This document shows, one piece after another, positions 3,001 through 63,685 of a stretch of 64,000 nucleotides of DNA. A program made the translations under genes and the position numbers. Numbering within the stretch: position 1 is the first letter of the stretch; each line of letters starts with the position of its first letter. Source of the stretch: Eledone cirrhosa. Taxonomy: Eukaryota. Location: positions 37,014,001 through 37,078,000 of the forward strand of contig OZ024748.1 in NCBI GenBank assembly GCA_964016885.1. Direction: 5' to 3'. The notes below the pieces were generated by a model. It had not been told where the DNA came from. It did not search any database and saw only the letters and a program-made list of their open reading frames with translations.

Positions 3001-4895
3001 CAAACACAGAGGTACGAAACACCCACTGTCACTGCCTCTGTGTCTCCCACTCTCTCATATTACACCAGGTCCTAACACAGAGGAACCAAACTCCCACTGT
3101 CACTGCCTCCGTCTCTCCCACTCTCTCATACTAAACCAGGTCCAACACAGAGGAACCAAACTCCTACTGTCACTGCCTCTGTCTCTCCCACTCTCTCATA
3201 TACACAAGGTCCGAACACAGAGGTACGAAACCCCCACTGTCACTGCCTCTGTCTCTCCCACTCTCTCATATTACACCAGGTCCTAACACAGAGGAACCAA
3301 ACTCCCACTGTCACTGCCTCCGTCTCTCCCACTCTCTCATACTAAACCAGGTCCAACACAGAGGAACCAAACTCCTACTGTCACTGCCTCTGTCTCTCCC
3401 ACTCTCTCATATACACCAGGTTCGAACACAGCAGTATGAAACCCTACTGTCACTGCCTCTGTCTCTCCCACTCTCTCAAATTAGACCAGGTCATAACACA
3501 GAGGAACCAAACTCCCACTGTCACTGCCCCTGTCTCTCTTACTCTCTCATATTACACCAGGTCCCAACACAGAGGGACCAAACTCCCACTGTCACTGCCC
3601 CTGTCTCTCTTACTCTCTCATATTACACCAGGTCCCAACACAGAGGTACCAAACTCCCACTGTCACTGCCTCTGTCTCTCCCACTCTCTCATACTACACC
3701 AGGTCCTAACACAGAGGAACCAAACCCCCACTGTCACTGCCTCTCTCTCTCCCACTCTCTCATATTACACCAGGTCCTAACACAGAGGAACCAAACCCCC
3801 ACTGTCACTGCCCCTCTCTCTCCCACTCTCTCATATTACACCAGGTCCTAACACAGAGGAACCAAACTCCCACTGTCACTGCCTCCGTCTCTCTCACTCT
3901 CTCATACTAAACCAGGTCCAACACAGAGGAACCAAACTCCCACTGTCACTGCCTCTGTCTCTCCTACTCTCTCATATACACCAGGTCCGAACATAGAGGT
4001 ACGAGACCCCCACTGTCACTGCCTCTGTCTCTCCCACTCACTCATATTACACCAGGTCCTAACACAGAGAAACCAAACTCCCACTGTCACTGCCTCTGTC
4101 TCTCCCACTCTCTCATATTACACCAGGTCCCAACACAGAGGAACCAAACTCCCACTGTCACTGCCTCTGTCTCTCCCATTCTCTCACATTACACCAGTTC
4201 CCAACACAGAGGAACCAAACTCCCACTGTCACTGCCTCCGTCTCTCCCACTCTCTCATACTAAACCAGGTCCAACACAGAGGAACCAAACTCCCACTGTC
4301 ACTGCCTCTGTCTCTCCCACTCTCTCATATACACCAGGTCTGAACACACAGGTACGAGACCCCCACTGTCACTGCCTCTGTCTCTCCCACTCTCTCATAT
4401 TACACCAGGTCCCAACACAGAGGAACCAAACTCCCACTGTCACTGCCTCTGTCTCTCCCACTCTCTCATATTACACCAGTTCCCAACACAGAGGAACCAA
4501 ACTCCCACTGTCACTGCCTCTGTCTCTCCCACTCTCTCATATTACACCAGGTCCCAACACAGAGGTACCAAACTCCCACTGTCACTGCCTCTGTCTCTCC
4601 CACTCTCTCATATTACAACAAATCCCAACACAGAGGAACCAAACTCCCACTGTCACTGCCTCTCTCTCTCCCACTCTCTCATATTAGACTAGGTCATAAC
4701 ACAGAGGAACCAAACTCACACTGTCACCGCCTCTGTCTCTCCCACTCTCTCACATTACACCAGTTCCCAACACAGAGGAACCAAACTCCCACTGTCACTG
4801 CCTCTGTCTCTCCGACACTCTCATATTACACCAGGTCCTAACACAGAGGTACCAAATCCCCACTGTCAGTGCCTCCGTCTCTCCCACTCTCTCAT
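1..4895. repeat. Higher-order duplication: 1-~1855 repeated at 3115-~4895 (offset 3114, then 3043 after loss of one monomer)
   Basis: The rare variant TTCGAACACAGCAGTATGAAACCCTACTG occurs at ~307 and 3421, and ORF-track entries 322 and 3436 are nearly identical. TACAACAAATCCC and CCGACACTCTC variants recur at offset 3043. Confidence 0.9.
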
Positions 4896-37800: not shown

Positions 37801-40800
37801 CTCTGACTCTCCCACTCTCTCATATTACACCAGGTCCCAACACAGAGGAACCAAACTCCCACTGTCACTGTCTCTGTCTCTCCCACTCTCTCATATTACA
37901 CCAGGTCCCAACACAGAGGAACCAAACTCCCACTGTCACATCCTCTGACTCTCCCACTCTCTCATATTACACCAGGTCCCAACACAGAGGAACCAAACTC
38001 CCGCTGTCACTGCCTCTGTCTCTCCCACTAACTCATATTACACCAGGTCCTAACACAGAGGAACCAAACCCCCACTGTCACTGCCTCTCTCTCTCCCACT
38101 CTCTCATATTACACCAGGTCCTAACACAGAGGAACCAAACCCCCACTGTCACTGCCTCCGTCTCTCCCACACTCTCATACTAAACCAGGTCCAACACAGA
38201 GGAACCAAACTCCCACTGTCACTGCCTCTGTCTCTCCCACTCTCTCATATTACACCAGGTCCTAACACAGAGGAACCAAACTCCCACTATCACTGCCTCT
38301 CTCTCTCCCACTCTCTCATATTACACCAGGTCCTAACACAGAGGAACCAAACTCCCACTGTCACTGCCTCTGTCTCTCCCACTCTCTCATATTACACTAG
38401 GTCCTAACACAGAGGAACCAAACTCCCACTGTCACTGCCTCTGTCTCTACCACTCTCTCATATTACACCAGGTCCTAACACAGAGGAACCAAACTCCCAC
38501 TGTCACTGCCTCTGTCTCACCCACTCTCTCATATTACACCAGGTCCTAACACAGAGGAACCAAACTCCCACTGTCACTGCCTCTGTCTCTCCCACTCTCT
38601 CATATTACACCAGGTCCTAACACAGAGGAACCAAACTCCCACTGTCACTGCCTCTGTCTCTACCACTCTCTCATATTACACCAGGTCCCAACACAGAGGA
38701 ACCAAACTCCCACTGTCACTGCCTCTGTCTCTACCACTCTCTCATATTACACCAGGTCCCAACACAGAGGAACCAAACCCCCACTGTCACTGCCTCTCTC
38801 TCTCCCACTCTCTCATATTACACCAGGTCCTAACACAGAGGAACCAAACTCCCACTGTCACTGCCTCTGTCTCTCCCACTCTCTCATATTACACCAGGTC
38901 CTAACACAGAGGAACCAAACTCCCACTGTCACTGCCTCTGTCTCTACCACTCTCTCATATTACACCAGGTCCCAACACAGAGGAACCAAACTCCCACTGT
39001 CACTGTCTCCGTCTCTCCCACTTTCTCATACTAAACCAGGTCCCAACACAGAGGAACCAAACTCCCACTGTCACTGCCTCTGTCTCTCCCACTCTCTCAT
39101 ATTACACCAGGTCCCAACACAGAGGAACCAAACTCTCACTGTCACTGTCTCCGTCTCTCCCACTTTCTCATACTAAACCAGGTCCCAACACAGAGGAACC
39201 AAACTCCCACTGTCACTGTCTCTGTCTCTCCCACTCTCTCATATTACACCAGGTCCTAACACAGAGGAACCAAACTCCCACTATCACTGCCTCTCTCTCT
39301 CCCACTCTCTCATATTACACCAGGTCCAACACAGAGAAACCAAACTACTACTGTCACTGCCTCTGTCTCTTCCGCTCTCTCATATAAACCAGGTCCGAAC
39401 ACAGAGGAACCAAACTCCCACTGTCACTGCCTCTGTCTCTCCCACTCTCTCATAATACACCAGGTCCTAACACAGAGGAACCAAACTCCCACTGTCACTG
39501 CCTCTGTCTCTCCCACTCTCTCATATTTCACCAGGTCCTAACACAGAGAAACCAAACTCCCACTGTCACTGCCTCTGTCTCTCCCGCTCTCTCATATTAC
39601 ACCAGGTCCTAACACAGAGGAACCAAACCCCCACTGTCACTGCCCCTCTCTCTCCCAATCCCTCATATTACACCAGGTCCCAACACATAGGAACCAAACT
39701 CCCACTGTCACTGCCTCTGTCTCTCCCACTCCCTCATATTACACCAGGTCCCAACACAGAGGAACCAAACTCCCACTGTCACTGCCTCTGTCTCTCCCAC
39801 TCTCTCATATTACACCAGGTCATAACACAGAGGAACCAAACTCCCACTGTCTCTGCCCCTGTCTCTCCCACTCTCTCATATTACACCAGGTCCCAACACA
39901 GAGGAACCAAACTCCCACTGTCACTGCCTCTGTCTCTCCCACTCTCTCATATTACACCAGGTCCTAACACAGAGGAACCAAACCTCCACTGTCACTGCCT
40001 CTCTCTCTCCCAGTCTCTCATATTACACCAGGTCCTAACACAGAGGAACCAAACCCCCACTGTCACTGCCTCTCTCTCTCCCACTCTCTCATATTACACC
40101 AGGTCCTAACACAGAGGAACCAAACTCCCACTGTCACTGCCTCCGTCTCTCCCACTCTCTCATACTAAACCAGGTCCAACACAGAGGAACCAAACTCCCA
40201 CTGTCACTGCCTCTGTCTCTCCCACTCTCTCATATTACACCAGGTCCCAACACAGAGGAACCAAACACCCACTGTCACTTCCTCTGACTCTCCCACTCTC
40301 TCATATTACACCAGGTCCCAACACAGAGGAACCAAACTCCCGCTGTCACTGCCTCTGTCTCTCCCACTCTCTCATATTACACCAGGTCCCAACACAGAGG
40401 AACCAAACCCCCACTGTCACTGCCTCTCTCTCTCCCACTCTCTCATATTACACCAGGTCCTAACACAGAGGAACCAAACCCCCACTGTCACTGCCTCCAT
40501 CTCTTCCACACTCTTATACTAAACCAGGTCCAACACAAAGGAACCAAACTCCCACTGTCACTGCCTCTGTCTCTCCCACTCTCTCATATTACACCAGGTC
40601 CCAACACAGAGGAACCAAACCCCCACTGTCACTGCCTCTGTCTCTCCCACTCTCTCATATTACACCAGGTCCCAACACAGAGGAACCAAACTCCCACTGT
40701 CACTGCCTCTGTCTCTCCCACTCTCTCACATTACACCAGGTCCCAACACAGAGGAACCAAACTACCACTGTCACTGCCTCTGTCTCTCCCACTCTCTCAC

Positions 40801-43800
40801 ATTACACCAGGTCCTAACACAGATGAACCAAACTCCCACTGTCACTGCCTCTGTCTCTCCCACTCTCTCATATTACACCAGGTCCCAACACAGAGGAACC
40901 AAACTCCCACTGTCACTGCCTCTGTCTCTCCCACTCTCTCACATTACACCAGGTCCTAACACAGATGAACCAAACTCCCACTGTCACTGCCTCTGTCTCT
41001 CCCACTCTCTCATATTACACCAGGTCCCAACACAGAGGAACCAAACTCCCACTGTCACTGCCTCTGTCTCTCCCACTCTCTCATGTTACACCAGGTCCCA
41101 ACACAGAGGAACCTAACTCCCACTGTCACTGTCTCCGTCTCTCCCACTTTCTCATACTAAACCAGGTCCCAACACAGAGGAACCAAACTCCCACTGTCAC
41201 TGCCTCTGTCTCTCCCACTCTCTCATATTACACCAGGTCCCAACACAGAGGAACCAAACTCCCACTGTCACTGCCTCTGTCTCTCCCACTCTCTCACATT
41301 ACACCAGGTCCCAACACAGAGGAACCAAACTCCCACTGTCACTGCCTCTGTCTCTCCCACTCTCTCACATTACACCAGGTCCTAACACAGATGAACCAAA
41401 CTCCCACTGTCACTGCCTCTGTCTCTCCCACTCTCTCATATTACACCAGGTCCCAACACAGAGGAACCAAACTCCCACTGTCACTGCCTCTGTCTCTCCC
41501 ACTCTCTCACATTACACCAGGTCCTAACACAGAGGAACCAAACTCCCACTGTCACTGCCTCTGTCTCTCCCACTCTCTCACATTACACCAGGTCCCAACA
41601 CAGAGGAACCAAACTCCCACTGTCACTGCCTCTGTCTCTCCCACTCTCTCACATTACACCAGGTCCTAACACAGATGAACCAAACTCCCACTGTCACTGC
41701 CTCTGTCTCTCCCACTCTCTCACATTACACCAGGTCCCAACACAGAGGAACCAAACTCCCACTGTCACTGCCTCTGTCTCTCCCACTCTCTCACATTACA
41801 CCAGGTCCTAACACAGATGAACCAAACTCCCACTGTCACTGCCTCTGTCTTTCCCGCTCTCTCATATTACACCAGTTCCTAACACAGAGGAACCAAACTC
41901 CCCCTGTAACTGCCTCTCTCTCTGCCACTCTCTCACATTACACCAGTTCCCAACATAGAGGAACCAAACTCCCACTGTCACTGCCTCTGTCTCTCCCACT
42001 CTCTCATATTTCACCAGGTCCCAACACAGAGGAACCAATCTCCCACTGTCACTGTCTCTCTCTCTCCCACTCTCTCATATTACACCAGTTCCTAACACAG
42101 AGGAACCAAACTCCCACTGTCACTGCCTCTGTCTCTCCCACTCTCTCATATTACACCAGGTCCTAACACAGAGGAACCAAACCCCCACTGTCACTGCCTC
42201 TCTCTCTCCCACTCTCTCATATTACACCAGGTCCTAACACAGAGGAACCAAACCCCCACTGTCACTGCCTCCGTCTCTCCCACACTCTCATACTAAACCA
42301 GGTCCAACACAGAGGAACCAAACTCCCACTGTCACTGCCTCTGTCTCTCCCACTCTCTCATATTACACCAGGTCCTAACACAGAGGAACCAAACCCCCAC
42401 TGTCACTGCCTCTCTCTCTCCCACTCTCTCATATTACACCAGGTCCTAACACAGAGGAACCAAACCCCCACTGTCACTGCCTCCGTCTCTCCCACACTCT
42501 CATACTAAACCAGGTCCAACACAGAGGAACCAAACCCCCACTGTCACTGCCTCTCTCTCTCCCACTCTCTCATATTACACCAGGTCCTAACACAGAGGAA
42601 CCAAACCCCCACTGTCACTGCCTCCGTCTCTCCCACACTCTCATACTAAACCAGGTCCAACACAGAGGAACCAATCTCCCACTGTCACTGTCTCTCTCTC
42701 TCCCACTCTCTCATATTACACCAGTTCCTAACACAGAGGAACCAAACTCCCACTGTCACTGTCTCTCTCTCTCCCACTCTCTCATATTACACCAGGTCCG
42801 AACACAGAGGAACCAAACTCCCACTGTCACTGCCTCTGTCTCTCCCACTCTCTCATATTACACCAGGTCCCAACACAGAGGAACCAAACTCCCACTGTCA
42901 CTGCCTCTGTCTCTCCCACTCTCTCATATTACACCAGGTCCCAACACAGAGGAACCAAACTCCCACTGTCACTGTCTCCGTCTCTCCCACTTTCTCATAC
43001 TAAACCAGGTCCCAACACAGAGGAACCAAACTCCCACTGTCACTGCCTCTGTCTCTCGCACTCTCTCATATTACACCAGTCCCTAACACAGAGGAACCAA
43101 ACTCCCACTGTCACTGCCTCTGTCTCTCCCACTCTCTCATATTTCAACAGGTCCCAACACAGAGGAACCAAACTCCCACTGTCACTGTCTCCTGTCTTTC
43201 CCACTCTCTCATATTACACCAGGTCCCAACACAGAGGTACCAAACTCCCACTGACACTGCCTCTGTCTCTCCCACTCTCTCATATTACACCAGGTCCCAA
43301 CACAGAGGAACCAAACTCCCACTGTCACTGTCTCTGTCTCTCCCACTCTCTCATATTACACCAGGTCCCAACACAGAGGTACCAAACTCCCACTGTCACT
43401 GCCTCTGTCTCTCCCACTCTCTCATATTACACCAGGTCCGAACTCAGAGGAACCAAACTTCCACTGTCACTGTCTCTGTCTCTCCCACTCTCTCACATTA
43501 CACCAGGTCCTAACACAAATGAACCAAACTCCCACTGTCACTGCCTCTGTCTCTCCCACTCTCTCATAATACACCAGGTCCTAACACAGAGGAACCAAAC
43601 TCCCACTGTCACTGCCTCTGTCTCTCCCACTCTCTCATATTACACCAGGTCCTAACACAGAGGAACCAAACCCCCACTGTCACTGCCCCTCTCTCTCCCA
43701 CTCTCTCATATTACACCAGGTCCCAACACATAGGAACCAAACTCCCACTGTCACTGCCTCTGTCTCTCCCACTCTCTCATATTACACCAGGTCCCAACAC

Positions 43801-45159
43801 AGAGGAACCAAACTCCCACTGTCACTGCCTCTGTCTCTCCCACTCTCTCATATTAGACCAGGTCATAACACAGAGGAACCAATCTCCCACTGTCTCTGCC
43901 CCTGTCTCTCCCACTCTCTCATATTACACCAGGTCCCAACACAGAGGAACCAAACTCCCACTGTCACTGCCTCTGTCTCTCCCACTCTCTCATATTACAC
44001 CAGGTCCTAACACAGAGGAACCAAACCCCCACTGTCACTGCCTCTCTCTCTCCCAGTCTCTCATATTACACCAGGTCCTAACACAGAGGAACCAAACCCC
44101 CACTGTCACTGCCTCTCTCTCTCCCACTCTCTCATATTACACCAGGTCCTAACACAGAGGAACCAAACTCCCACTGTCACTGCCTCCGTCTCTCCCACTC
44201 TCTCATACTAAACCAGGTCCAACACAGAGGAACCAAACTCCCACTGTCACTGCCTCTGTCTCTCCCACTTTGTCATATACACCAGGTCCGAATACAGAGG
44301 AACCAAACTCCCACTGTCACTGCCTCTGTCTCTCCCACTCTCTCATATTACACCAGGTCCCAACACGGAGGAACCAAACTCCCACTCTCACTGCCTCTGT
44401 CTCTCCCACTCTCTCATATTACACCAGGTCCTAACACAGAGGAACCAAACTCCCACTGTCACTGCCTCTGTCTCTCCCACTCTCTCATATTACACCAGGT
44501 CCCAACACGGAGGAACCAAACTCCCACTCTCACTGCCTCTGTCTCTCCCACTCTCTCATATTACACCAGGTCCCAACACAGAGGAACCAAACTCCCACTG
44601 TCACTTCCTCTGACTCTCCCACTCTCTCATATTACACCAGGTCCCAACACAGAGGAACCAAACTCCCGCTGTCACTGCCTCTGTCTCTCCCACTCTCTCA
44701 TATTACACCAGGTCCCAACACAGAGGAACCAAACTCCCACTGTCACTGCCTCTGTCTCTCCCACTCTCTCATATTACACCAGGTCCCAACACAGAGGAAC
44801 CAAACTCCCGCTGTCACTGCCTCTGTCTCTCCCACTCTCTCATATTACACCAGGTCCCAACACAGAGGAACCAAACTCCCACTGTCACTTCCTCTGACTC
44901 TCCCACTCTCTCATATTACACCAGGTCCCAACACAGAGGAACCAAACCCCCACTGTCACTGCCTCTCTCTCTCCCACTCTCTCATATTACACCAGGTCCT
45001 AACACAGAGGAACCAAACCCCCACTGTCACTGCCTCCGTCTCTCCCACACTCTCATACTAAACCAGGTCCAACACAGAGGAACCAAACTCCCACTGTCAC
45101 TGCCTCTGTCTCACCCACTCTCTCATATTACACCAGGTCCGAACACAGAGGAACCAAAC

Positions 45160-48100
45160 TCCCACTGTCACTGCCTCTGTCTCTCCCACTCTCTCATACT
45201 AAACCAGGTCCCAACACAGAGGAACCAAACTCCCACTGTCACTGTCTCCGTCTCTCCCACTTTCTCATACTAAACCAGGTCCCAACACAGAGGAACCAAA
45301 CTCCCACTGTCACTGTCTCCGTCTCTCCCACTCTCTCATATTACACCAGGTCCTAACACAGAGGAACCAAACTCCCACTGTCACTGCCTCTGTCTCTCCC
45401 ACTCTCTCACATTACACCAGGTCCTAACACAGATGAACCAAACTCCCACTGTCACTGACTCTGTCTTTCCCGCTCTCTCATATTACACCAGTTCCTAACA
45501 CAGAGGAACCAAACTCCCACTGTAACTGCCTCTCTCTCTCCCACTCTCTCACATTACACCAGTTCCCAATATAGAGGAACCAAACTCCCACTGTCACTGC
45601 CTCTGTCTCTCCCACTCTCTCATATTTCACCAGGTCCCAACACAGAGGAACCAATCTCCCACTGTCACTGTCTCTCTCTCTCCCACTCTCTCATATTACA
45701 CCAGTTCCTAACACAGAGGAACCAAACCCCCACTGTCAATGCCTCTGTCCCTCCCACTCTCTCATATTACACCAGTTCCTAACACAGAGGAACCAAACTC
45801 CCATTGTCACTGCCTCTGTCTCTCCACTCTCTCATATTACACCAGGTCCTAACACAGAGCAACCAAACTCCCACTGTCACTGCCTCTGTCTCTCCCACTC
45901 TCTCATATTACACCAGGTCCTAACACAGAGGAACCAAACTCCCACTGTCACTGCCTCTGTCACTCCCACTCTCTCATATTACACCAGGTCCCAACACAGA
46001 GGAACCAAACTCCCACTGTCACTGCCTCTGTCTCTCGCACTCTCTCATATTACACCAGTCCCTAACACAGAGGAACCAAACTCCCACTGTCACTGCCTCT
46101 GTCTCTCCCACTCTCTCATATTTCACCAGGTCCCAACACAGAGGAACCAAACTCCCACTGTCACTGTCTCTGTCTTTCCCACTCACTCATATTACACCAG
46201 GTCCCAACACAGAGGAACCAAACTCCCACTGTAACTGCCTCTGTCTCTCCCACTCTCTCATATTACACCAGTTCCTAACACAGAGGAACCAAACTCCCAC
46301 TGTAACTGCCTCTCTCTCTCCCACTCTCTCACATTACACCAGTTCCCAACACAGAGGAACCAAATTCCCACTGTCACTGCCTCTGTCTCTCCCACTCTCT
46401 CATATTTCACCAGGTCCCAACACAGAGGAACCAAACTCCCACTGTCACTGCCTCTGTCTCTCCCACTCTCTCATATTTCACCAGGTCCCAACACAGAGGA
46501 ACCAAACTCCCACTGTCACTGCCTCTGTCTCTCCCACTCTCTCATATTTCACCAGGTCCCAACACAGAGGAACCAAACTCCCACTGTCGCTGCCTCTGTC
46601 TCTCCCACTCTCTCATATTACACCAGGTCCCAACACAGAGGAACCAAACTCCCACTGTCGCTGCCTCTGTCTCTCCCACTCTCTCATATTACACCAGGTC
46701 CCAACACAGAGGAACCAAATTCCCACTGTCACTGCCTCTGTCTCTCCCACTCTCTCATATTTCACCAGGTCCCAACACAGAGGAACCAAACTCCCACTGT
46801 CACTGCCTCTGTCTCTCCCACTCTCTCACATTACACCAGGTCCCAACACAGAGGAACCAAACTCCCACTGTCACTGCCTCTGTCTCTCCCACTCTCTCAT
46901 ATTTCACCAGGTCCCAACACAGAGGAACCAAACTCCCACTGTCACTGCCTCTGTCTCTCCCACTCTCTCATATTTCACCAGGTCCCAACACAGAGGAACC
47001 AAACTCCCACTGTCACTGCCTCTGTCTCTCCCACTCTCTCATATTTCACCAGGTCCCAACACAGAGGAACCAATCTCCCACTGTCACTGTCTCTCTCTCT
47101 CCCACTCTCTCATATTACACCAGTTCCTAACACAGAGGAACCAAACCCCCACTGTCACTGCCTCTGTCTCTCCCACTCTCTCATATTTCACCAGGTCCCA
47201 ACACAGAGGAACCAATCTCCCACTGTCACTGTCTCTCTCTCTCCCACTCTCTCATATTACACCAGTTCCTAACACAGAGGAACCAAACCCCCACTGTCAC
47301 TGCCTCTGTCTCTCCCACTCTCTCATATTTCACCAGGTCCCAACACAGAGGAACCAATCTCCCACTGTCACTGTCTCTCTCTCTCCCACTCTCTCATATT
47401 ACACCAGTTCCTAACACAGAGGAACCAAACCCCCACTGTCACTGCCTCTGTCTCTCCCACTCTCTCATATTTCACCAGGTCCCAACACAGAGGAACCAAA
47501 CTCCCACTGTCACTGCCTCTGTCTCTCCCACTCTCTCATATTTCACCAGGTCCCAACACAGAGGAACCAATCTCCCACTGTCACTGCCTCTCTCTCTCCC
47601 ACTCTCTCATATTACACCAGTTCCTAACACAGAGGAACCAAACCCCCACTGTCACTGCCTCTGTCTCTCCCACTCTCTTATATTTCACCAGGTCCCAACA
47701 CAGAGGAACCAATCTCCCACTGTCACTGTCTCTCTCTCTCCCACTCTCTCATATTACACCAGTTCCTAACACAGAGGAACCAAACCCCCACTGTCACTGC
47801 CTCTGTCTCTCCCACTCTCTCATATTTCACCAGGTCCCAACACAGAGGAACCAATCTCCCACTGTCACTGTCTCTCTCTCTCCCACTCTCTCATATTACA
47901 CCAGTTCCTAACACAGAGGAACCAAACCCCCACTGTCACTGCCTCTGTCTCTCCCACTCTCTCATATTTCACCAGGTCCCAACACAGAGGAACCAATCTC
48001 CCACTGTCACTGTCTCTCTCTCTCCCACTCTCTCATATTACACCAGTTCCTAACACAGAGGAACCAAACCCCCACTGTCACTGCCTCTGTCTCTCCCACT

Positions 48101-51100
48101 CTCTCATATTTCACCAGGTCCCAACACAGAGGAACCAATCTCCCACTGTCACTGTCTCTCTCTCTCCCACTCTCTCATATTACACCAGTTCCTAACACAG
48201 AGGAACCAAACCCCCACTGTCACTGCCTCTGTCTCTCCCACTCTCTCATATTTCACCAGGTCCCAACACAGAGGAACCAAACTCCCACTGTCACTGCCTC
48301 TGTCTCTCCCACTCTCTCATATTTCACCAGGTCCCAACACAGAGGAACCAATCTCCCACTGTCACTGCCTCTCTCTCTCCCACTCTCTCATATTACACCA
48401 GTTCCTAACACAGAGGAACCAAACCCCCACTGTCACTGCCTCTGTCTCTCCCACTCTCTTATATTTCACCAGGTCCCAACACAGAGGAACCAATCTCCCA
48501 CTGTCACTGTCTCTCTCTCTCCCACTCTTTCATATTACACCAGTTCCTAACACAGAGGAACCAAACCCCCACTGTCACTGCCTCTGTCTCTCCCACTCTC
48601 TCATATTACACCAGGTCCCAACACAGAGGAACCAATCTCCCACTGTCACTGTCTCTCTCTCTCCCACTCTTTCATATTACACCAGTTCCTAACACAGAGG
48701 AACCAAACTCCCACTGTCAATGCCTCTGTCTCTCCCACTCTCTCATATTACACCAGTTCCTAACACAGAGGAACCAAACTCCCACTGTCACTGCCTCTGT
48801 CTCTCCCACTCTCTCATATTACACCAGGTCCTAACACAGAGGAACCAAACCCCCACTGTCACTGCCTCTGTCTCTCCCACTCTCTCATATTACACCAGGT
48901 CCCAACACAGAGGAACCAATCTCCCACTGTCACTGCCTCTGTCTCTCCCACTCTCTCATACTAAACCAGGTCCCAACACAGAGGAACCAAACTCCCACTG
49001 TCACTGTCTCCGTCTCTCCCACTTTCTCATACTAAACCAGGTCCCAACACAGAGGAACCAAACTCCCACTGTCACTGTCTCCGTCTCTCCCACTCTCTCA
49101 TATTACACCAGGTCCTAACACAGAGGAACCAAACTCCCACTGTCACTGCCTCTGTCTCTCCCACTCTCTCACATTACACCAGGTCCTAACACAGATGAAC
49201 CAAACTCCCACTGTCACTGACTCTGTCTTTCCCGCTCTCTCATATTACACCAGTTCCTAACACAGAGGAACCAAACTCCCACTGTAACTGCCTCTCTCTC
49301 TCCCACTCTCTCACATTACACCAGTTCCCAATATAGAGGAACCAAACTCCCACTGTCACTGCCTCTGTCTCTCCCACTCTCTCATATTTCACCAGGTCCC
49401 AACACAGAGGAACCAATCTCCCACTGTCACTGTCTCTCTCTCTCCCACTCTCTCATATTACACCAGTTCCTAACACAGAGGAACCAAACCCCCACTGTCA
49501 ATGCCTCTGTCCCTCCCACTCTCTCATATTACACCAGTTCCTAACACAGAGGAACCAAACTCCCATTGTCACTGCCTCTGTCTCTCCACTCTCTCATATT
49601 ACACCAGGTCCTAACACAGAGCAACCAAACTCCCACTGTCACTGCCTCTGTCTCTCCCACTCTCTCATATTACACCAGGTCCTAACACAGAGGAACCAAA
49701 CTCCCACTGTCACTGCCTCTGTCACTCCCACTCTCTCATATTACACCAGGTCCCAACACAGAGGAACCAAACTCCCACTGTCACTGCCTCTGTCTCTCGC
49801 ACTCTCTCATATTACACCAGTCCCTAACACAGAGGAACCAAACTCCCACTGTCACTGCCTCTGTCTCTCCCACTCTCTCATATTTCACCAGGTCCCAACA
49901 CAGAGGAACCAAACTCCCACTGTCACTGTCTCTGTCTTTCCCACTCACTCATATTACACCAGGTCCCAACACAGAGGAACCAAACTCCCACTGTAACTGC
50001 CTCTGTCTCTCCCACTCTCTCATATTACACCAGTTCCTAACACAGAGGAACCAAACTCCCACTGTAACTGCCTCTCTCTCTCCCACTCTCTCACATTACA
50101 CCAGTTCCCAACACAGAGGAACCAAATTCCCACTGTCACTGCCTCTGTCTCTCCCACTCTCTCATATTTCACCAGGTCCCAACACAGAGGAACCAAACTC
50201 CCACTGTCACTGCCTCTGTCTCTCCCACTCTCTCATATTTCACCAGGTCCCAACACAGAGGAACCAAACTCCCACTGTCACTGCCTCTGTCTCTCCCACT
50301 CTCTCATATTTCACCAGGTCCCAACACAGAGGAACCAAACTCCCACTGTCGCTGCCTCTGTCTCTCCCACTCTCTCATATTACACCAGGTCCCAACACAG
50401 AGGAACCAAACTCCCACTGTCGCTGCCTCTGTCTCTCCCACTCTCTCATATTACACCAGGTCCCAACACAGAGGAACCAAATTCCCACTGTCACTGCCTC
50501 TGTCTCTCCCACTCTCTCATATTTCACCAGGTCCCAACACAGAGGAACCAAACTCCCACTGTCACTGCCTCTGTCTCTCCCACTCTCTCACATTACACCA
50601 GGTCCCAACACAGAGGAACCAAACTCCCACTGTCACTGCCTCTGTCTCTCCCACTCTCTCATATTTCACCAGGTCCCAACACAGAGGAACCAAACTCCCA
50701 CTGTCACTGCCTCTGTCTCTCCCACTCTCTCATATTTCACCAGGTCCCAACACAGAGGAACCAAACTCCCACTGTCACTGCCTCTGTCTCTCCCACTCTC
50801 TCATATTTCACCAGGTCCCAACACAGAGGAACCAATCTCCCACTGTCACTGTCTCTCTCTCTCCCACTCTCTCATATTACACCAGTTCCTAACACAGAGG
50901 AACCAAACCCCCACTGTCACTGCCTCTGTCTCTCCCACTCTCTCATATTTCACCAGGTCCCAACACAGAGGAACCAATCTCCCACTGTCACTGTCTCTCT
51001 CTCTCCCACTCTCTCATATTACACCAGTTCCTAACACAGAGGAACCAAACCCCCACTGTCACTGCCTCTGTCTCTCCCACTCTCTCATATTTCACCAGGT

Positions 51101-52630
51101 CCCAACACAGAGGAACCAATCTCCCACTGTCACTGTCTCTCTCTCTCCCACTCTCTCATATTACACCAGTTCCTAACACAGAGGAACCAAACCCCCACTG
51201 TCACTGCCTCTGTCTCTCCCACTCTCTCATATTTCACCAGGTCCCAACACAGAGGAACCAAACTCCCACTGTCACTGCCTCTGTCTCTCCCACTCTCTCA
51301 TATTTCACCAGGTCCCAACACAGAGGAACCAATCTCCCACTGTCACTGCCTCTCTCTCTCCCACTCTCTCATATTACACCAGTTCCTAACACAGAGGAAC
51401 CAAACCCCCACTGTCACTGCCTCTGTCTCTCCCACTCTCTTATATTTCACCAGGTCCCAACACAGAGGAACCAATCTCCCACTGTCACTGTCTCTCTCTC
51501 TCCCACTCTCTCATATTACACCAGTTCCTAACACAGAGGAACCAAACCCCCACTGTCACTGCCTCTGTCTCTCCCACTCTCTCATATTTCACCAGGTCCC
51601 AACACAGAGGAACCAATCTCCCACTGTCACTGTCTCTCTCTCTCCCACTCTCTCATATTACACCAGTTCCTAACACAGAGGAACCAAACCCCCACTGTCA
51701 CTGCCTCTGTCTCTCCCACTCTCTCATATTTCACCAGGTCCCAACACAGAGGAACCAATCTCCCACTGTCACTGTCTCTCTCTCTCCCACTCTCTCATAT
51801 TACACCAGTTCCTAACACAGAGGAACCAAACCCCCACTGTCACTGCCTCTGTCTCTCCCACTCTCTCATATTTCACCAGGTCCCAACACAGAGGAACCAA
51901 TCTCCCACTGTCACTGTCTCTCTCTCTCCCACTCTCTCATATTACACCAGTTCCTAACACAGAGGAACCAAACCCCCACTGTCACTGCCTCTGTCTCTCC
52001 CACTCTCTCATATTTCACCAGGTCCCAACACAGAGGAACCAAACTCCCACTGTCACTGCCTCTGTCTCTCCCACTCTCTCATATTTCACCAGGTCCCAAC
52101 ACAGAGGAACCAATCTCCCACTGTCACTGCCTCTCTCTCTCCCACTCTCTCATATTACACCAGTTCCTAACACAGAGGAACCAAACCCCCACTGTCACTG
52201 CCTCTGTCTCTCCCACTCTCTTATATTTCACCAGGTCCCAACACAGAGGAACCAATCTCCCACTGTCACTGTCTCTCTCTCTCCCACTCTTTCATATTAC
52301 ACCAGTTCCTAACACAGAGGAATCAAACCCCCACTGTCACTGCCTCTGTCTCTCCCACTCTCTCATATTACACCAGGTCCCAACACAGAGGAACCAATCT
52401 CCCACTGTCACTGTCTCTCTCTCTCCCACTCTTTCATATTACACCAGTTCCTAACACAGAGGAACCAAACTCCCACTGTCAATGCCTCTGTCTCTCCCAC
52501 TCTCTCATATTACACCAGTTCCTAACACAGAGGAACCAAACTCCCACTGTCACTGCCTCTGTCTCTCCCACTCTCTCATATTACACCAGGTCCTAACACA
52601 GAGGAACCAAACCCCCACTGTCACTGCCTC
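45160..52630. repeat. Near-identical tandem duplication of a 3762-bp (53-monomer) block
   Basis: Diagnostic variants AATATAGAGG (45568/49330) and AATGCCTCTGTCCCTCCC (45738/49500), and ORF starts 48720/52482, are all exactly 3762 bp apart. Confidence 0.93.
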
Positions 52631-55600
52631 TCTCTCTCCCACTCTCTCATATTACACCAGGTCCTAACACAGAGGAACCAAACCCCCACTGTCACTGCCT
52701 CCGTCTCTCCCACACTCTCATACTAAACCAGGTCCCAACACAGAGGAACCAAACTCCCACTGTCACTGCCTCTGTCTCTCCCACTCTCTCATATTACACC
52801 AGGTCCCAACACAGAGGAACCAAACTCCCACTGTCACTGCCTCTGTCTCTCCCACTCTCTCATATTACACCAGGTCCCAACACAGAGGAACCAAACTCCC
52901 ACTGTCACTGTCTCCGTCTCTCCCACTTTCTCATACTAAACCAGGTCCCAACACAGAGGAACCAAACTCCCCCTGTCACTGCCTCTGTCTCTCGCACTCT
53001 CTCATATTACACCAGTCCCTAACACAGAGGAACCAAACTCCCACTGTCACTGCCTCTGTCTCTCCCACTCTCTCATATTTCAACAGGTCCCAACACAGAG
53101 GAACCAAACTCCCACTGTCACTGTCTCCTGTCTTTCCCACTCACTCATATTACACCAGGTCCCAACACAGAGGAACCAAACTCCCACTGTCACTGTCTCC
53201 GTCTCTCCCACTTTCTCATACTAAACCAGGTCCCAACACAGAGGAACCAAACTCCCACTGTCACTGCCTCTGTCTCTCGCACTCTCTCATATTACACCAG
53301 TCCCTAACACAGAGGAACCAAACTCCCACTGACACTGCCTCTGTCTCTCCCACTCTCTCATATTACACCAGGTCCCAACACAGAGGAACCAAACTCCCAC
53401 TGTCACTGTCTCTGTCTCTCCCACTCTCTCATATTACACCAGGTCCCAACACAGAGGTACCAAACTCCCACTGTCACTGCCTCTGTCTCTCCCACTCTCT
53501 CATATTACACCAGGTCCGAACTCAGAGGAACCAAACTCCCACTGTCACTGTCTCTGTCTCTCCCACTCTCTCACATTACACCAGGTCCTAACACAAATGA
53601 ACCAAACTCCCACTGTCACTGCCTCTGTCTCTCCCACTCTCTCATAATACACCACGTCCTAACACAGAGGAACCAAACTCCCACTGTCACTGCCTCTGTC
53701 TCTCCCACTCTCTCATATTACACCAGGTCCTAACACAGAGGAACCAAACCCCCACTGTCACTGCCTCTCTCTCTCCCAGTCTCTCATATTACACCAGGTC
53801 CTAACACAGAGGAACCAAACCCCCACTGTCACTGCCTCTCTCTCTCCCACTCTCTCATATTACACCAGGTCCTAACACAGAGGAACCAAACTCCCACTGT
53901 CACTGCCTCCGTCTCTCCCACTCTCTCATACTAAACCAGGTCCAACACAGAGGAACCAAACTCCCACTGTCACTGCCTCTGTCTCTCCCACTTTGTCATA
54001 TACACCAGGTCCGAATACAGAGGAACCAAACTCCCACTGTCACTGCCTCTGTCTCTCCCACTCTCTCATATTACACCAGGTCCCAACACGGAGGAACCAA
54101 ACTCCCACTCTCACTGCCTCTGTCTCTCCCACTCTCTCATATTACACCAGGTCCCAACACAGAGGAACCAAACTCCCACTGTCACTTCCTCTGACTCTCC
54201 CACTCTCTCATATTACACCAGGTCCCAACACAGAGGAACCAAACTCCCGCTGTCACTGCCTCTGTCTCTCCCACTCTCTCATATTACACCAGGTCCTAAC
54301 ACAGAGGAACCAAACTCCCACTGTCACTGCCTCTGTCTCTCCCACTCTCTCATATTACACCAGGTCCCAACACGGAGGAACCAAACTCCCACTCTCACTG
54401 CCTCTGTCTCTCCCACTCTCTCATATTACACCAGGTCCCAACACAGAGGAACCAAACTCCCACTGTCACTGCCTCTGACTCTCCCACTCTCTCATATTAC
54501 ACCAGGTCCCAACACAGAGGAACCAAACTCCCGCTGTCACTGCCTCTGTCTCTCCCACTCTCTCATATTACACCAGGTCCCAACACAGAGGAACCAAACT
54601 CCCGCTGTCACTTCCTCTGACTCTCCCACTCTCTCATATTACACCAGGTCCCAACACAGAGGAACCAAACTCCCGCTGTCACTGCCTCTGTCTCTCCCAC
54701 TCTCTCATATTACACCAGGTCCCAACACAGAGGAACCAAACTCCCGCTGTCACTGCCTCTGTCTCTCCCACTCTCTCATATTACACCAGGTCCCAACACA
54801 GAGGAACCAAACTCCCGCTGTCACTGCCTCTGTCTCTCCCACTCTCTCATATTACACCAGGTCCCAACACAGAGGAACCAAACTCCCACTGTCACTTCCT
54901 CTGACTCTCCCACTCTCTCATATTACACCAGGTCCCAACACAGAGGAACCAAACTCCCACTGTCACTGCCTCTGTCTCTCCCACTCTCTCATATTACACC
55001 AGGTCCTAACACAGAGGAACCAAACCCCCACTGTCACTGCCTCTCTCTCTCCCACTCTCTCATATTACACCAGGTCCTAACACAGAGGAACCAAACCCCC
55101 ACTGTCACTGCCTCTCTCTCTCCCACTCTCTCATATTACACCAGGTCCTAACACAGAGGAACCAAACCCCCACTGTCACTGCCTCTCTCTCTCCCACTCT
55201 CTCATATTACACCAGGTCCTAACACAGAGGAACCAAACCCCCACTGTCACTGCCTCTCTCTCTCCCACTCTCTCATATTACACCAGGTCCTAACACAGAG
55301 GAACCAAACCCCCACTGTCACTGCCTCTCTCTCTCCCACTCTCTCATACTAAACCAGGTCCAACACAGAGGAACCAAACTCCCACTGTCACTGCCTCTGT
55401 CTCACCCACTCTCTCATATTACACCAGGTCCGAACACAGAGGAACCAAACTCCCACTGTCACTGCCTCTGTCTCTCCCACTCTCTCATATTACACCAGGT
55501 CCCAACACAGAGGAACCAAACTCCCACTGTCACTGTCTCCGTCTCTCCCACTTTCTCATACTAAACCAGGTCCCAACACAGAGGAACCAAACTCCCACTG

Positions 55601-58249
55601 TCACTGTCTCCGTCTCTCCCACTCTCTCATATTACACCAGGTCCTAACACAGAGGAACCAAACTCCCACTGTCACTGCCTCTGTCTCTCCCACTCTCTCA
55701 CATTACACCAGGTCCCAACACAGAGGAACCAAACTCCCACTGTCACTGCCTCTGTCTCTCCCACTCTCTCACATTACACCAGGTCCTAACACAGATGAAC
55801 CAAACTCCCACTGTCACTGACTCTGTCTTTCCCGCTCTCTCATATTACACCAGTTCCTAACACAGAGGAACCAAACTCCCACTGTAACTGCCTCTCTCTC
55901 TCCCACTCTCTCACATTACACCAGTTCCCAACATAGAGGAACCAAACTCCCACTGTCACTGCCTCTGTCTCTCCCACTCTCTCATATTTCACCAGGTCCC
56001 AACACAGAGGAACCAATCTCCCACTGTCACTGTCTCTCTCTCTCCCACTCTCTCATATTACACCAGTTCCTAACACAGAGGAACCAAACCCCCACTGTCA
56101 ATGCCTCTGTCCCTCCCACTCTCTCATATTACACCAGTTCCTAACACAGAGGAACCAAACTCCCATTGTCACTGCCTCTGTCTCTCCACTCTCTCATATT
56201 ACACCAGGTCCTAACACAGAGCAACCAAACTCCCACTGTCACTGCCTCTGTCTCTCCCACTCTCTCATATTACACCAGGTCCTAACACAGAGGAACCAAA
56301 CTCCCACTGTCACTGCCTCTGTCACTCCCACTCTCTCATATTACACTAGGTCCCAACACAGAGGAACCAAACTCCCACTGTCACTGCCTCTGTCTCTCGC
56401 ACTCTCTCATATTACACCAGTCCCTAACACAGAGGAACCAAACTCCCACTGTCACTGCCTCTGTCTCTCCCACTCTCTCATATTTCACCAGGTCCCAACA
56501 CAGAGGAACCAAACTCCCACTGTCACTGTCTCTGTCTTTCCCACTCACTCATATTACACCAGGTCCCAACACAGAGGAACCAAACTCCCACTGTAACTGC
56601 CTCTGTCTCTCCCACTCTCTCATATTACACCAGTTCCTAACACAGAGGAACCAAACTCCCACTGTAACTGCCTCTCTCTCTCCCACTCTCTCACATTACA
56701 CCAGTTCCCAACACAGAGGAACCAAATTCCCACTGTCACTGCCTCTGTCTCTCCCACTCTCTCATATTTCACCAGGTCCCAACACAGAGGAACCAAACTC
56801 CCACTGTCACTGCCTCTGTCTCTCCCACTCTCTCATATTTCACCAGGTCCCAACACAGAGGAACCAAACTCCCACTGTCACTGCCTCTGTCTCTCCCACT
56901 CTCTCATATTTCACCAGGTCCCAACACAGAGGAACCAAACTGCCACTGTCGCTGCCTCTGTCTCTCCCACTCTCTCATATTACACCAGGTCCCAACACAG
57001 AGGAACCAAACTCCCACTGTCGCTGCCTCTGTCTCTCCCACTCTCTCATATTACACCAGGTCCCAACACAGAGGGACCAAACTCCCACTGTCACTGCCTC
57101 TCTCTCTCCCACTCTCTCATATTTCACCAGGTCCCAACACAGAGGAACCAAACTCCCACTGTCACTGCCTCTGTCTCTCCCACTCTCTCACATTACACCA
57201 GGTCCCAACACAGAGGAACCAAACTCCCACTGTCACTGCCTCTGTCTCTGCCACTCTCTCATATTTCACCAGGTCCCAACACAGAGGAACCAAACTCCCA
57301 CTGTCGCTGCCTCTGTCTCTCCCACTCTCTCATATTACACCAGGTCCCAACACAGAGGAACCAAACTCCCACTGTCACTGCCTCTGTCTCTCCCACTCTC
57401 TCATATTACACCAGGTCCCAACACAGAGGGACCAAACTCCCACTGTCACTGTCTCTGTCTCTCCCACTCTCTCATATTACACCAGGTCCCAACACAGAGG
57501 AATCAAACTCCCACTGTCACTGCCTCTGTCTCTCCCACTCTCTCATATTACACCAGGTCCCAACACAGAGGAACCAAACTCCCACTGTCACTGCCTCTGT
57601 CTCTCCCACTCTCTCATATTACACCAGGTCCCAACACAGAGGAACCAAACTCCCACTGTCACTGCCTCTGTCTCTCCCACTCTCTCATATTACACCAGGT
57701 CCCAAGACAGAGGAACCAAACTCCCACTGTCACTGCCTCTGTCTCTCCCACTCTCTCATATTACACCAGGTCCTAACACAGAGGAACCAAACTCCCACTG
57801 TCACTGTCTCTGTCTCTCCCACTCTCTCATATTACACCAGGTCCCAAGACAGAGGAACCAAACACCCACTGTCACTGCCTCTGTCTCTCCCACTCTCTCA
57901 TATTACACCAGTTCCTAACACAGAGGAACCAAACTCCCACTGTCACTGCCTCTGTCTCTCCTACTTTCTCATATTACACCAGGTCTTAACACAGAGGAAA
58001 CAAACTCCCACTGTCACTGTCTCTGTCTCTTCCACTCTCTCATATTACACCAGGTCTTAACACAGAGGAAACAAACTCCCACTGTCACTGTCTCTGTCTC
58101 TCCCACTCTCTCATATTACACCAGTTACCAACACAGAGGAACCAAACTCTCACTGTCACTGCCTCTGTCTCTCCCACTCTCTCATATTACACCAGGTTCC
58201 AACACAGAGGGACCAAACTCCCACTGTCACTGTCTCTGTCTCTCCCACT

Positions 58250-60230
58250 CTCTCATATTACACCAGGTCTTAACACAGAGGAAACAAACTCCCACTGTCA
58301 CTGTCTCTGTCTCTCCCACTCTCTCATATTACACCAGTTACCAACACAGAGGAACCAAACTCTCACTGTCACTGCCTCTGTCTCTCCCACTCTCTCATAT
58401 TACACCAGGTTCCAACACAGAGGGACCAAACTCCCACTGTCACTGCCTCTCTCTCTCCCACTCTCTCATATTACACCAGTTCCTAACACAGAGGAACAAA
58501 CTCCCACTGTCACTGCCTCTGTCTCTCCCACTCTCTCATATTACATCAGTTGCTAACACAGAGGAACCTAACCCCCAATGTCAATGCCTCTGTCTCTCCC
58601 ACTCTCTCATATTACACCAGTTCCTAACACAGAGGAACCAAACTGCCACTGTCACTGTCTCTGTCTCTCCACTCTCTCATATTACACCAGGTCCTAACAC
58701 AGAGCAACGAAACTCCCATTGTCACTGCCTCTGTCTCTCCCATCTCTCATATTACACCAGGTCCGAACACAGAGGAACCAAACTCCCACTGTCACTGCCT
58801 CTGTCTCTCCCACTCTCTCATATTACACCAGTCCCTAACACAGAGGAACCAAACTCCCACTGTCACTGCCTCTGTCTCTCCCACTCTCTCACATTACACC
58901 AGTTCCCAACACAGAGGAACCAAACTCCTACTGTCACTGCCTCTGTCTCTCCCACTCTCTCACATTACACCAGTCCCTAACACAGAGGAACCAAACTCCC
59001 ACCGTCACTGCCTCTGTCTCTCCCACTCTCTCATATTACACCAGGTCCCAACACAGAGGAACCAAACTCCTACTGTCACTGCCTCTGTCTCTCCCACTCT
59101 CTCATATTACACCAGGTCCCAAGACAGAGGAACCAAACACCCACTGTCACTGCCTCTGTCTCTCCCACTCTCTCATATTACACCAGTCCCTAACACAGAG
59201 GAACCAAACTCCCACTGTCACTGTCTCTGTCTCTCCCACTCTCTCATATTACACCAGGTCTTAACACAGAGGAAACAAACTCCCACTGTCACTGTCTCTG
59301 TCTCTCCCACTCTCTCATATTACACCAGTTACCAACACAGAGGAACCAAACTCTCACTGTCACTGCCTCTGTCTCTCCCACTCTCTCATATTACACCAGG
59401 TCCCAACACAGAGGAACCAAACTCCCACTGTCACTGCCTCTGACTCTCTCACTCTCTCATATTACACGCGGTCCCAACACAGAGGAACCAAACTCCCACT
59501 GTCACTGCCTCCGTCTCTCCCACTCTCTCATATTACACCAGGTTCCAACACAGAGGGACCAAACTCCCACTGTCACTGCCTCTCTCTCTCCCACTCTCTC
59601 ATATTACACCAGTTCCTAACACAGAGGAACAAACTCCCACTGTCACTGCCTCTGTCTCTCCCACTCTCTCATATTACATCAGTTGCTAACACAGAGGAAC
59701 CTAACCCCCAATGTCAATGCCTCTGTCTCTCCCACTCTCTCATATTACACCAGTTCCTAACACAGAGGAACCAAACTGCCACTGTCACTGTCTCTGTCTC
59801 TCCACTCTCTCATATTACACCAGGTCCTAACACAGAGCAACGAAACTCCCACTGTCACTGCCTCTGTCTCTCCCACTCTCTCATATTACACCAGGTCCGA
59901 ACACAGAGGAACCAAACTCCCACTGTCACTGCCTCTGTCTCTCCCACTCTCTCATATTACACCAGTCCCTAACACAGAGGAACCAAACTCCCACTGTCAC
60001 TGCCTCTGTCTCTCCCACTCTCTCACATTACACCAGTTCCCAACACAGAGGAACCAAACTCCTACTGTCACTGCCTCTGTCTCTCCCACTCTCTCACATT
60101 ACACCAGTCCCTAACACAGAGGAACCAAACTCCCACCGTCACTGCCTCTGTCTCTCCCACTCTCTCATATTACACCAGGTCCCAACACAGAGGAACCAAA
60201 CTCCTACTGTCACTGCCTCTGTCTCTCCCA
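58250..60230. repeat. 1133-bp (16-monomer) higher-order duplication near the array edge
   Basis: GAGGAACAAACT occurs at 58491/59624 and CATCAGTTGCTAAC at 58544/59677. Confidence 0.88.
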
Positions 60231-61639
60231 CTCTCTCATATTACACCACATCCCAACACAGAGGAACCAAACTCCCACCGTCACTGCCTCTGTCTCTCCC
60301 ACTGTCTCATACTACACCATGTCCTAACACATAGGAACCAAACTCCCACTGTCACTGTCTCTGTCTCTCCCACACTCTCACATTACACCAGGTCCCAACA
60401 CAGAGGAACCAAACTCCCACTGTCACTGCCTCTGTCTCTCCCACTCTCTCATATTACACCAGGTCCCAACACAGAGGAACCAAACTCCCACTGTCACTGC
60501 CTCTGTCTCTCCCACTCTCTCATATTACTACCAGGTCCCAACACAGAGGAACCAAACTCCCACTGTCACTGCCTCTGTCTCTCCCACTCTCTCATATTAC
60601 ACCAGGTCCCAACACAGAGGAACCAAACTCCCACTGTCACTGCCTCTGTCTCTCCCACTTTCTCATATTACACCAGGTCCTAACACAGAGGAACCAAACT
60701 CCCACTGTCACTGCCTCTGTCTCTCCCACTCTCTCACATTACACCAGGTCCCAACACAGAGGAACCAAACTCCCACTGTCACTGCCTCTGTCTCTCCCAC
60801 TTTCTCACATTACACCAGGTCCTAACACAGAGGAACCAAACTCCCACTGTCACTGCCTCTGTCTCTCCCACTCTCTCACATTACACCAGGTCCCAACACA
60901 GAGGAACCAAACTCCCACTGTCACTGCCTCTGTCTCTCCCACTCTCTCACATTACACCAGGTCCTAACACAGAGGAACCAAACTCCCACTGTCACAGCCT
61001 CTGTCTCTCCCACTCTCTCATATTTCACCAGGTCCCAACACAGAGGAACCAAACTCCCACTGTCACTGCCTCTGTCTCTCCCACTCTCTCATATTACACC
61101 AGGTTCCAACACAGAGGAACCAAACTCCCACTGTCACTGCCTCTGTCTCTCCCTCTCTCTCATATTACACCAGGTCCTAACACAGAGGAACCAAACTCCC
61201 ACTGTCACTGCCTCTGTCTCTCCTACTCTCTCATACTACACCAGGTCTCAACACAGAGGAACCAAACTCCCTCTGTCACTGCCTCTGTCTTTCCCACTCT
61301 CTCATACTACACCAGGTCTCAACACAGAGGAACCAAACTCCCTCTGTCACTGCCTCTGTCTTTCCCACTCTCTCATATTACACTAGGTCCGACCACAGAG
61401 GAACCAAACTCCCACTCTCACTGCCTCTGTCTCTCCTACTCTCTCATATTACACCAGGTCTCAACACAGAGGAACCAAACTCCCTCTGTCACTGCCTCTG
61501 TCTTTCCCACTCTCTCATATTACACTAGGTCCGACCACAGAGGAACCAAACTCCCACTGTCACTTCTTCCGTTTCTACAGCTCTCCCCATCTCTCACTAT
61601 TATGAAGAAATGGTCCTCCACATTCTGGCCGCCCCTTTT

Positions 61640-61780
61640 GAACGGCGGACAGAAATGAGAAGGTGTTTCTCCGGTGGATTGAGAGGGAGATGCGCTGGAA
61701 GAGCCGTTCCAGCTGGTGAGGCTCACACCTACGGGTAACCAACCATGTGCCGATGGTGGGGAGCAGGGATAACATGCAGC
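61640..61780 (-). mobile_element. Degenerate 3' fragment of a CRE-like (RLE-type) non-LTR retrotransposon ORF
   Basis: The - strand translation LSLLPTIGTWLVTRRCEPHQLERLFQRISLSIHRRNTFSFLSA matches, from memory, the C-terminal motif of CRE-clade elements (..L..IG.RL....G(D/E)PR...(F/W)LFQR(L/I)S(I/L)AIQRGNA.S(V/I)L). LFQRISLSIHRRNTFSFLSA spans 61644-61703. No RT domain is visible and the motif is decayed (RRN for RGN). Confidence 0.6.
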
Positions 61781-62020
61781 TAAAAGTAAAGACAGTCACA
61801 ACCACATATTTTTAGATTATATTCGGGGATGGGGGTGTACTGTAAAAAGAAGACTCACCTTGAATTTGAAGAATGACCTTTACAAGTTTAGTCAATCACG
61901 CAAACCCCAATATCTATCAATCTAGTTCAGCCTGATATTTATTCCATGGATCATTATTTAATCGACTACTGGGGTAACATTTTTTTAAGTAACATCGCTT
62001 TTTACAACGGTTTTGAAACA

Positions 62021-63053: not shown

Positions 63054-63080
<27 letters not shown>
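63054..63080. repeat. (AT)13 microsatellite
   Basis: Perfect AT run separating the two PLE-derived segments. Confidence 0.97.
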
Positions 63081-63082
<2 letters not shown>

Positions 63083-63086
<4 letters not shown>

Positions 63087-63671: not shown

Positions 63672-63685
63672 TTTATTATTCCACA

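Follow-up and report, generated by a model that had tools for sequence, protein, structure and literature searches.

Does a satellite that adjoins a retrotransposon derive from that element, or is it the target into which the element inserts? The question is raised by a 64,000-nucleotide stretch of DNA (here called the window; G000:C8:37,014,001-37,078,000, from a 3.0-Gb genome), for which the initial annotation, made from the letters alone, described a satellite of more than 61 kb starting directly at the 3' end of a CRE-like retrotransposon fragment, and left both readings open. We think it likely that the satellite is the 3'-terminal segment (about 78 bp) of an RLE-type, CRE-like element, repeated some 2,770 times in place and flanked by the body and the tail of a single truncated copy, with a first duplication that probably arose during reverse transcription and growth that followed at the DNA level.

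The element fragment lies on the minus strand (Table 1), where an open frame reads LFQRISLSIHRRNTFSFLSA, the motif ending at 61,644 as first reported, and runs on in frame through HNSERWGEL to a stop, so that the frame ends at 61,575. This stop (61,577-61,575) is premature in the window copy; the stop of the family is a TGA at 61,562-61,560. The 5' junction of the body, at about 61,769, adjoins unrelated flank, and there is no array upstream of the body at this locus. Tandem Repeats Finder (TRF) assigns positions 1-61,564 to the 71-bp array (868.9 copies, 93% matches). A stretched monomer had been described about 20 bp past the motif, and this was right for bases 61,602-61,523, which align to the majority monomer with 63/71 identities and two gaps, of 1 and 8 bp (score 93; the highest of 2,000 shuffles scores 21). 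Bases 61,622-61,603, by contrast, are element body: they match 44 other element copies, typically at 11-14 of 20 positions (ungapped), and match the monomer end at only 2/20. What was taken for a degenerate monomer is in fact the undeleted ancestral 3' segment, from which the 71-mer has lost 9 bp. The 5' boundary of the repeated unit coincides with the loop and the start of the 3' arm (about 61,602-61,596) of a predicted hairpin.

Table 1. Features of the retrotransposon-satellite junction (window positions)
Feature	Position	Strand	Evidence
5'-truncated RLE-type (CRE-like) body, C-terminal endonuclease coding end	61603..61769	-	alignment, peptide match, ~80% identity to 39 places
Predicted 3' hairpin of element RNA	61587..61613	-	fold, 25-copy scan
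First unit, element form, 80 bp: last codons, TGA, 3' UTR	61523..61602	-	monomer alignment; single in other copies
71-bp satellite, window part	1..61522	-	TRF, sampling, distal end

The array is real and larger than first stated: it continues beyond the window to G000:C8:36,878,995, for a total of 196.6 kb and about 2,770 units of 71 bp (the far end was located by sampling, with approximately 103 of the 197 kb read directly). It is opened by about 170 bp of element body plus one undeleted 80-bp unit and closed by the element's own 3' tail, which begins TATGTATATATTTATTTACC, directly follows the last unit at C8:36,878,995 and best matches the tail of a single copy elsewhere, L020 (score 26; 180 control windows reach at most 20). 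Because the body and the tail of one copy bracket the array, birth of the 71-mer from the 3' end of the element is supported more strongly than the initial annotation proposed; the source, which had been placed in the 3' UTR, includes the UTR and also the last ~13 codons and the stop.

The array has the properties of a satellite, being long, arranged head to tail and composed of homogenised monomers (1,131 monomers of 71 bp average 96.5% identity to the majority). The ancestral C preceding GGACC is retained by 21 of these 1,131 monomers, yet both terminal units have it. Matches to a rare junction variant run through the unsampled interior; they recur four times at a spacing of 9,574 bp, and also at 7,579 and 8,503 bp, a trace of multi-kb block duplication, and a scan for higher-order repeats to lag 100 gave a faint dip at lag 2 only (3.8 versus about 4.1 differences). 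The main junction pattern of the array has 759 exact matches in the genome, all on one strand (100 of them listed), and the window density predicts approximately 770 for this array alone; the 71-bp form therefore appears, by this count, to be confined to the window locus. The array is interstitial on a 60.6-Mb contig, in a region that is rich in satellites, given the unrelated tandem repeats found 0.1-0.9 Mb from its far end (L042, L043, L045 and L047, at C8:36.0-36.8 Mb).

Elsewhere in the window (63,078-63,676 and 63,638-64,000, continuing in L049:387-2289) a 264-bp inverted repeat (97% complementary, 71 nt apart) precedes an open frame; the continuation has a GIY-YIG domain (E 1.4e-5), and the frame is broken. 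We take this layout to be that of a Penelope-like element with an inverted terminal repeat.

We identified the parent through its relatives, the window copy being too short to contain a reverse transcriptase (RT). A query of 216 junction bases has 2,248 candidate relatives, of which 40 were scored, the 39 other than the window itself at 78-83% identity. The peptide encoded in the window aligns to the C-terminal end of proteins that carry an RT (most closely to P0003, with 50% identity and E 4e-9, in a set of 20 proteins; tblastn E 8e-5 against the loci collected in this analysis), bearing out its earlier reading as a retrotransposon C-terminus. Walking upstream through other copies leads to a CCHC knuckle followed by a K/R-PD..D core, an endonuclease motif typical of animal CRE elements; the CCHC half was read in five copies (a sixth match was spurious), the PD..D half in five, and both halves unbroken in none. 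A search with a 165-amino-acid open stretch from L068 yielded 20 longer proteins, of which ten have a precomputed RT domain and two are named (Octopus sinensis). Four homologues match Pfam RVT_1 (E 3e-13 to 6e-18), three of them also showing a weak N-terminal match to PHD that stays under the curated cut-off, and the best relatives of the homologue profile among solved structures in the PDB are R2 proteins. At L143, which matches residues 396-966 of P0008 by tblastn and reads QQGDPLG and WYVDD, RT and endonuclease sequence lies directly upstream of a 58-unit array. From the RT and endonuclease in L143 and in the homologues, we class the parent as an RLE-type non-LTR retrotransposon. Its copies have a common 3' end and variable 5' truncation (body of 0 to more than 1,469 bp in 30 copies); the homologues from other sources are single proteins of 885-1,035 amino acids, and the element's own full-length copy was not recovered.

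The label CRE-like is a fair one as a resemblance (RT, CCHC and K/R-PD..D) and not as a placement within the CRE clade. The full endonuclease motif is present in 151 of 179 homologous proteins in a relaxed form (three spacings loosened by 1, the residue after RH free), and the strict SLACS/CRE1-2 spacing, as quoted in the available part of PMC12857005, in 0/179. A cluster-mate of one homologue is automatically annotated as 'Retrotransposable element SLACS protein'. Pfam assigned no family to the endonuclease peptides of L068, L078 and the window at E up to 1, and a search of the ESM Atlas with homologue P0017 returned only unnamed RT clusters. Among homologous RT proteins from other sources (P0026, P0029, P0030, P0040, P0041, P0043 and P0046), several have a ubiquitin carboxyl-terminal hydrolase domain (PF00443) as a fusion partner, and two others contain PF02338.

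How often the segment is repeated in ordinary copies was counted in two sets chosen irrespective of duplication. Among 57 copies picked by their upstream body, 47 keep the segment: 44 once, two twice and one four times. In the first 30 matches on C1, in order of position, to a pattern at the hairpin site, it is present once in 29 and twice in one. The segment thus does occur in the 3' ends of other copies, but as a single unit in 73/77, between unrelated flanks, so that the satellite is not the target of the element. The hairpin-site pattern has 589 exact matches in the genome and matches 10 of the 47 body-selected copies, suggesting by extrapolation some 2,800 element copies. After the unit come a short tail, of several subfamily types, and then unrelated DNA. 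The distance from an FQR anchor to the end of the open reading frame (ORF) has a mode of 102 bases, in frame (exactly 102 in 34 of 59 copies), and it is on this modal spacing that we place the in-frame end of the ORF within the unit; when the anchored copies are read as far as their first stop, 9 of 60 end at the family TGA and the others are frameshifted or decayed.

The element family is not site-specific. Insertion into a tandem target, as proposed by analogy with CRE/SLACS elements, was not seen: the copies are dispersed and their flanks unrelated by inspection. C1, with 14.8% of the genome, holds 81 of the 589 hairpin-site matches (13.8%). A search for target-site duplications in 20 of the 30 position-ordered copies gave no excess (6.15 versus 5.76), the ragged ends making this a weak test.

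Tandem copies of the segment are found at 41 other inspected loci besides the window array, a count that is at least 41, with more junction sites listed. Two junction forms are common, with 1,117 (CATG) and 3,110 (TATG) exact pattern matches, about 78 of the latter in the window array. Most of these loci were found by such exact patterns (the exceptions being L005, L076, L086, L181 and the window array), and their common breakpoint is therefore partly so by construction. Unit numbers form a series of 2, 3, 4, 5, 7, 9, 17-74, 101, 115, 171 and 327, followed by arrays of more than 100 kb; periods are mostly 78 bp, with variants of 60-85 bp. Upstream element sequence starts 36 of the 42 multi-unit loci, and six start inside a unit. 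At the other end, 24 of 41 visible ends exceed the 95th percentile of 180 control windows in their match to a single-copy tail; 17 fall below this threshold, several of them stopping mid-unit. Inspection of array ends thus gave, at many loci, both features looked for in a retroposon-derived satellite: a terminal unit continuous with the parent, and intermediate sizes at other copies.

Two further giant arrays lie on C28. One (C28:30,879,554-31,009,438, minus strand, 129.9 kb) comprises body, first unit, array and the same tail type as the window array; the other (C28:30,337,895-30,476,244, plus strand, 138.3 kb) has body and first unit. They are in opposite orientation, 400 kb apart, with other satellites between them, and each starts from a different parent copy. 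Both carry one common 80-bp variant despite their different bodies, so sequence has moved between them and they are not independent; this points to exchange, or to an inversion with its breakpoint within the arrays. At C2:217.100-217.111 Mb local segmental duplications have multiplied one copy with its array to four, of 6, 27, 8 and 6 units, indicating that array length changed after duplication. Approximately 12 multi-unit sites crowd C15:30.7-35.9 Mb, possibly a regional hotspot; among them are arrays of 171 units (60 bp) and 101 units (78 bp). Tandem junctions are scarce on the largest contigs while element copies, judged by C1, look evenly spread (C1-C7, 65% of the genome, hold 59 of the 1,117 CATG junctions, and C1-C2, 29% of the genome, hold 95 of the 3,110 TATG junctions); we treat this scarcity as a lead only, because a few arrays dominate the junction counts.

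These observations lead us to a model in several steps. Its first, second and fourth steps, namely single-unit spread, the junction pattern and DNA-level growth, we hold jointly with high confidence. The element spread as thousands of mostly 5'-truncated copies with the segment once. About 5% of copies have two to four units, with a junction leading from the first tail bases back to the 3' arm of the hairpin. Dimers grew by duplication of units and of multi-kb blocks, small deletions becoming fixed (60-85 bp periods; 71 bp here) and arrays homogenising, with ancestral bases kept in the terminal units. For the intervening step, on balance we favour seeding during reverse transcription, in which the RT would copy up the 3' arm and the 5' arm of the RNA would displace the cDNA end, which would re-prime on a short repeat with which the tail begins; dimeric source elements then probably passed on some of the dimers. 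In a last step, only some chromosomal regions may permit arrays of at least 100 kb. The arrays themselves are most likely neutral by-products, and no function is implied.

The reverse transcription step draws on a predicted structure. Of 27 windows scanned across the last 300 bases, only that of the hairpin gives a strong local fold (mean z -2.26; 14 of 25 copies below -2), and folds of the whole segment gave z of -2.4, -0.2, -1.0, -0.9 and -4.6. In the hairpin alignment 92.9% of cells are paired, with no double-sided (compensatory) changes, and the pairing is not above a shuffled control (477 of 500 shuffles as high), so that what it does in the RNA is a prediction. Slippage on the template at the 3' end of a LINE has been described for UnaL2, and 3' stem-loops in stringent LINEs (PMC3747384, in the part available). 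We also considered insertion of a second truncated copy into the tail of an older copy, and rejected it because the dimers show one tail and not two.

The first duplication could instead have been made purely in DNA, by slippage during replication or by repair of a break at the hairpin and short repeat after insertion, the rest of the model remaining the same; we regard this as the less likely course, although several observations suit it. First and second units are identical or nearly so at L005 (0/74 differences), C20:6.37 (0/75) and C7:4.41 (1/75), which fits duplication in DNA as well; rare variants common to the first unit and the majority of its own array average 0.67, versus 0.14 for other arrays; and a different, upstream 79-bp coding segment is also tandemly duplicated, at L009:1140-1536 (element orientation) and L143:4932-5250. 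Against it, the two units of five clean dimers are 11-15% diverged. Single copies (25 compared) differ by 19% on average, a baseline that mixes subfamilies and leaves the argument from dimer age soft, and internal units of arrays of at least five units differ by 0.6-9%. (Left out of the dimer comparison were C5:126.79, which has a partial first unit, and C4:74.75, C14:42.24, C12:12.06, L181, C1:325.86 and C3:17.30.) The six loci that begin inside a unit are nevertheless followed by fuller units: C5:126.79 starts at unit reference position 53 with a full unit next, and three more start at 14-19, so that the missing 5' part could not have been supplied locally unless it was deleted later. The junction letters, moreover, mostly agree with the tail of the copy itself: TAT- tails end 7 of 8 TATG-junction loci, and C-starting tails end 11 of 16 complete CATG-junction loci, none of which ends in TATG (hand count). 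Dimer divergence, mid-unit starts and this agreement of junction and tail favour a seed made during retrotransposition.

At three loci a CATG junction is combined with a GCAG tail, a combination that simple slippage from the copy's own tail could not make and that suits another reading, which we consider improbable as a general account: that seeds were inherited from a few source elements with a doubled 3' end, or transferred into existing copies by ectopic exchange, so that the loci are not separate births. The second unit of L076 shares an 8-bp deletion with the window monomer, and the variant common to the two C28 arrays and the crowding of sites on C15 point the same way. The general match of junction letters to each copy's own tail type does not, nor do the differences among arrays in tail type, period and 5' truncation point, nor the near equality of observed and expected matches to the window junction pattern. 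Inherited dimers are in any case compatible with seeding either by reverse transcription or in DNA.

Mis-assembly of the array length or of the junctions is very unlikely. Long tandem arrays are difficult to assemble and no read spanning either junction was seen: in runs X1 and X2 (one sample, possibly the source) a 503-base contig is identical over 61,543-62,000 but stops inside the first unit, giving no bridge to the regular array, and the RAD runs X4 and X5 yielded related copies only. The window and the sampled array pieces, however, contain no N, the monomers differ from one another, the terminal units keep ancestral bases, and dozens of short loci show this arrangement too. Still harder to credit is an older satellite into which the element inserts site-specifically, carrying its target at its 3' end, for although body and array adjoin and most families of the CRE, R2, R4 and NeSL clades are target-specific (PMC4640811, available part), the unit stands singly between unrelated flanks in nearly all copies and contains the in-frame end of the ORF, no array precedes the body, the array ends in element tail, and dimers have one tail.

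With seeding during reverse transcription as the preferred reading, a bolder extension may be offered tentatively: that the 3' stem-loop makes the RT slip at one fixed position, so that each wave of insertion would scatter ~78-bp dimers, of which dozens would have grown separately, three to more than 100 kb, with the parent ends still attached. A family with such a slip-prone 3' stem-loop would, if this were true, supply satellite seeds in a programmed way, and would serve as a replicated natural experiment showing at which positions a dimer can become a satellite. Because copies look evenly spread and junctions are scarce on the largest contigs, sequence is nearly constant in this comparison and position becomes testable.

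The finding is ordinary in kind, a retroelement-derived satellite, and it is already known that retroelement 3' ends yield satellites. What is unusual is that both parent ends are kept around 197 kb, marking the start and stop of array growth, together with an RLE donor, a single breakpoint and a full size series. The first tandem duplication and the selective growth of seeds are the least observed steps of satellite birth, and here one sequence is caught at 1, 2, 3, 4, tens, hundreds and thousands of units in a single genome. In the literature searched, which covered few subscription papers and neither Repbase nor supplements, we found no report of a CRE- or RLE-derived satellite, and none of the 37 rows of Table 1 of PMC9659126 names a CRE or other RLE donor.

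Among known systems, the donor itself resembles CRE1/2, SLACS, MoTeR and FoTeR, which have the same order of RT, CCHC knuckle and R/K-PD..D endonuclease (PMC4640811 and PMC12857005, available parts), and among molluscs CRE types are reported mainly from cephalopods in the accessible text of PMC10294476. It differs from these CRE-clade elements in being dispersed among unrelated flanks and not site-specific, in a motif spacing that departs by 1-2 residues from the published SLACS/CRE pattern (PMC12857005), and in the weak N-terminal PHD match of its homologues.

Among satellites derived from LINE 3' ends, the monomers of chicken HinfI/SCR1 (CR1 3' UTR plus part of ORF2) likewise include coding sequence, and the common cetacean satellite likewise has a monomer homologous to an L1 3' end; in both the donors are APE-type LINEs and the link is one of sequence similarity (PMC9659126, in part), whereas here the parent copy still brackets the array. 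The 3'-UTR satellites of legume Ogre elements (FabTR and PisTR-A; PMC7004042 and PMC9659126, available parts) also expand in place from a 3' region, with visible stages and regional bias. Ogre, however, is an LTR element that already carries tandem repeats (PMC7004042); the present donor is a non-LTR element, single-unit in nearly all copies, in which one segment yields all arrays.

The closest known case is that of the SINE-derived satellites of squamates (sSat), as presented in the available part of PMC10702118. In both systems a piece of a retroposon has become tandem at many loci, with independent origins; a longer terminal unit retains the parent sequence, and sizes grade from internal duplications to long arrays. 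The donor is a SINE in sSat and a protein-coding RLE element here; sSat arrays reach about 1,000 units, compared with about 2,770 here; retention of both element ends, usual here, is a minor variant in sSat; and sSat is attributed to unequal recombination, whereas here the breakpoint lies at a predicted hairpin.
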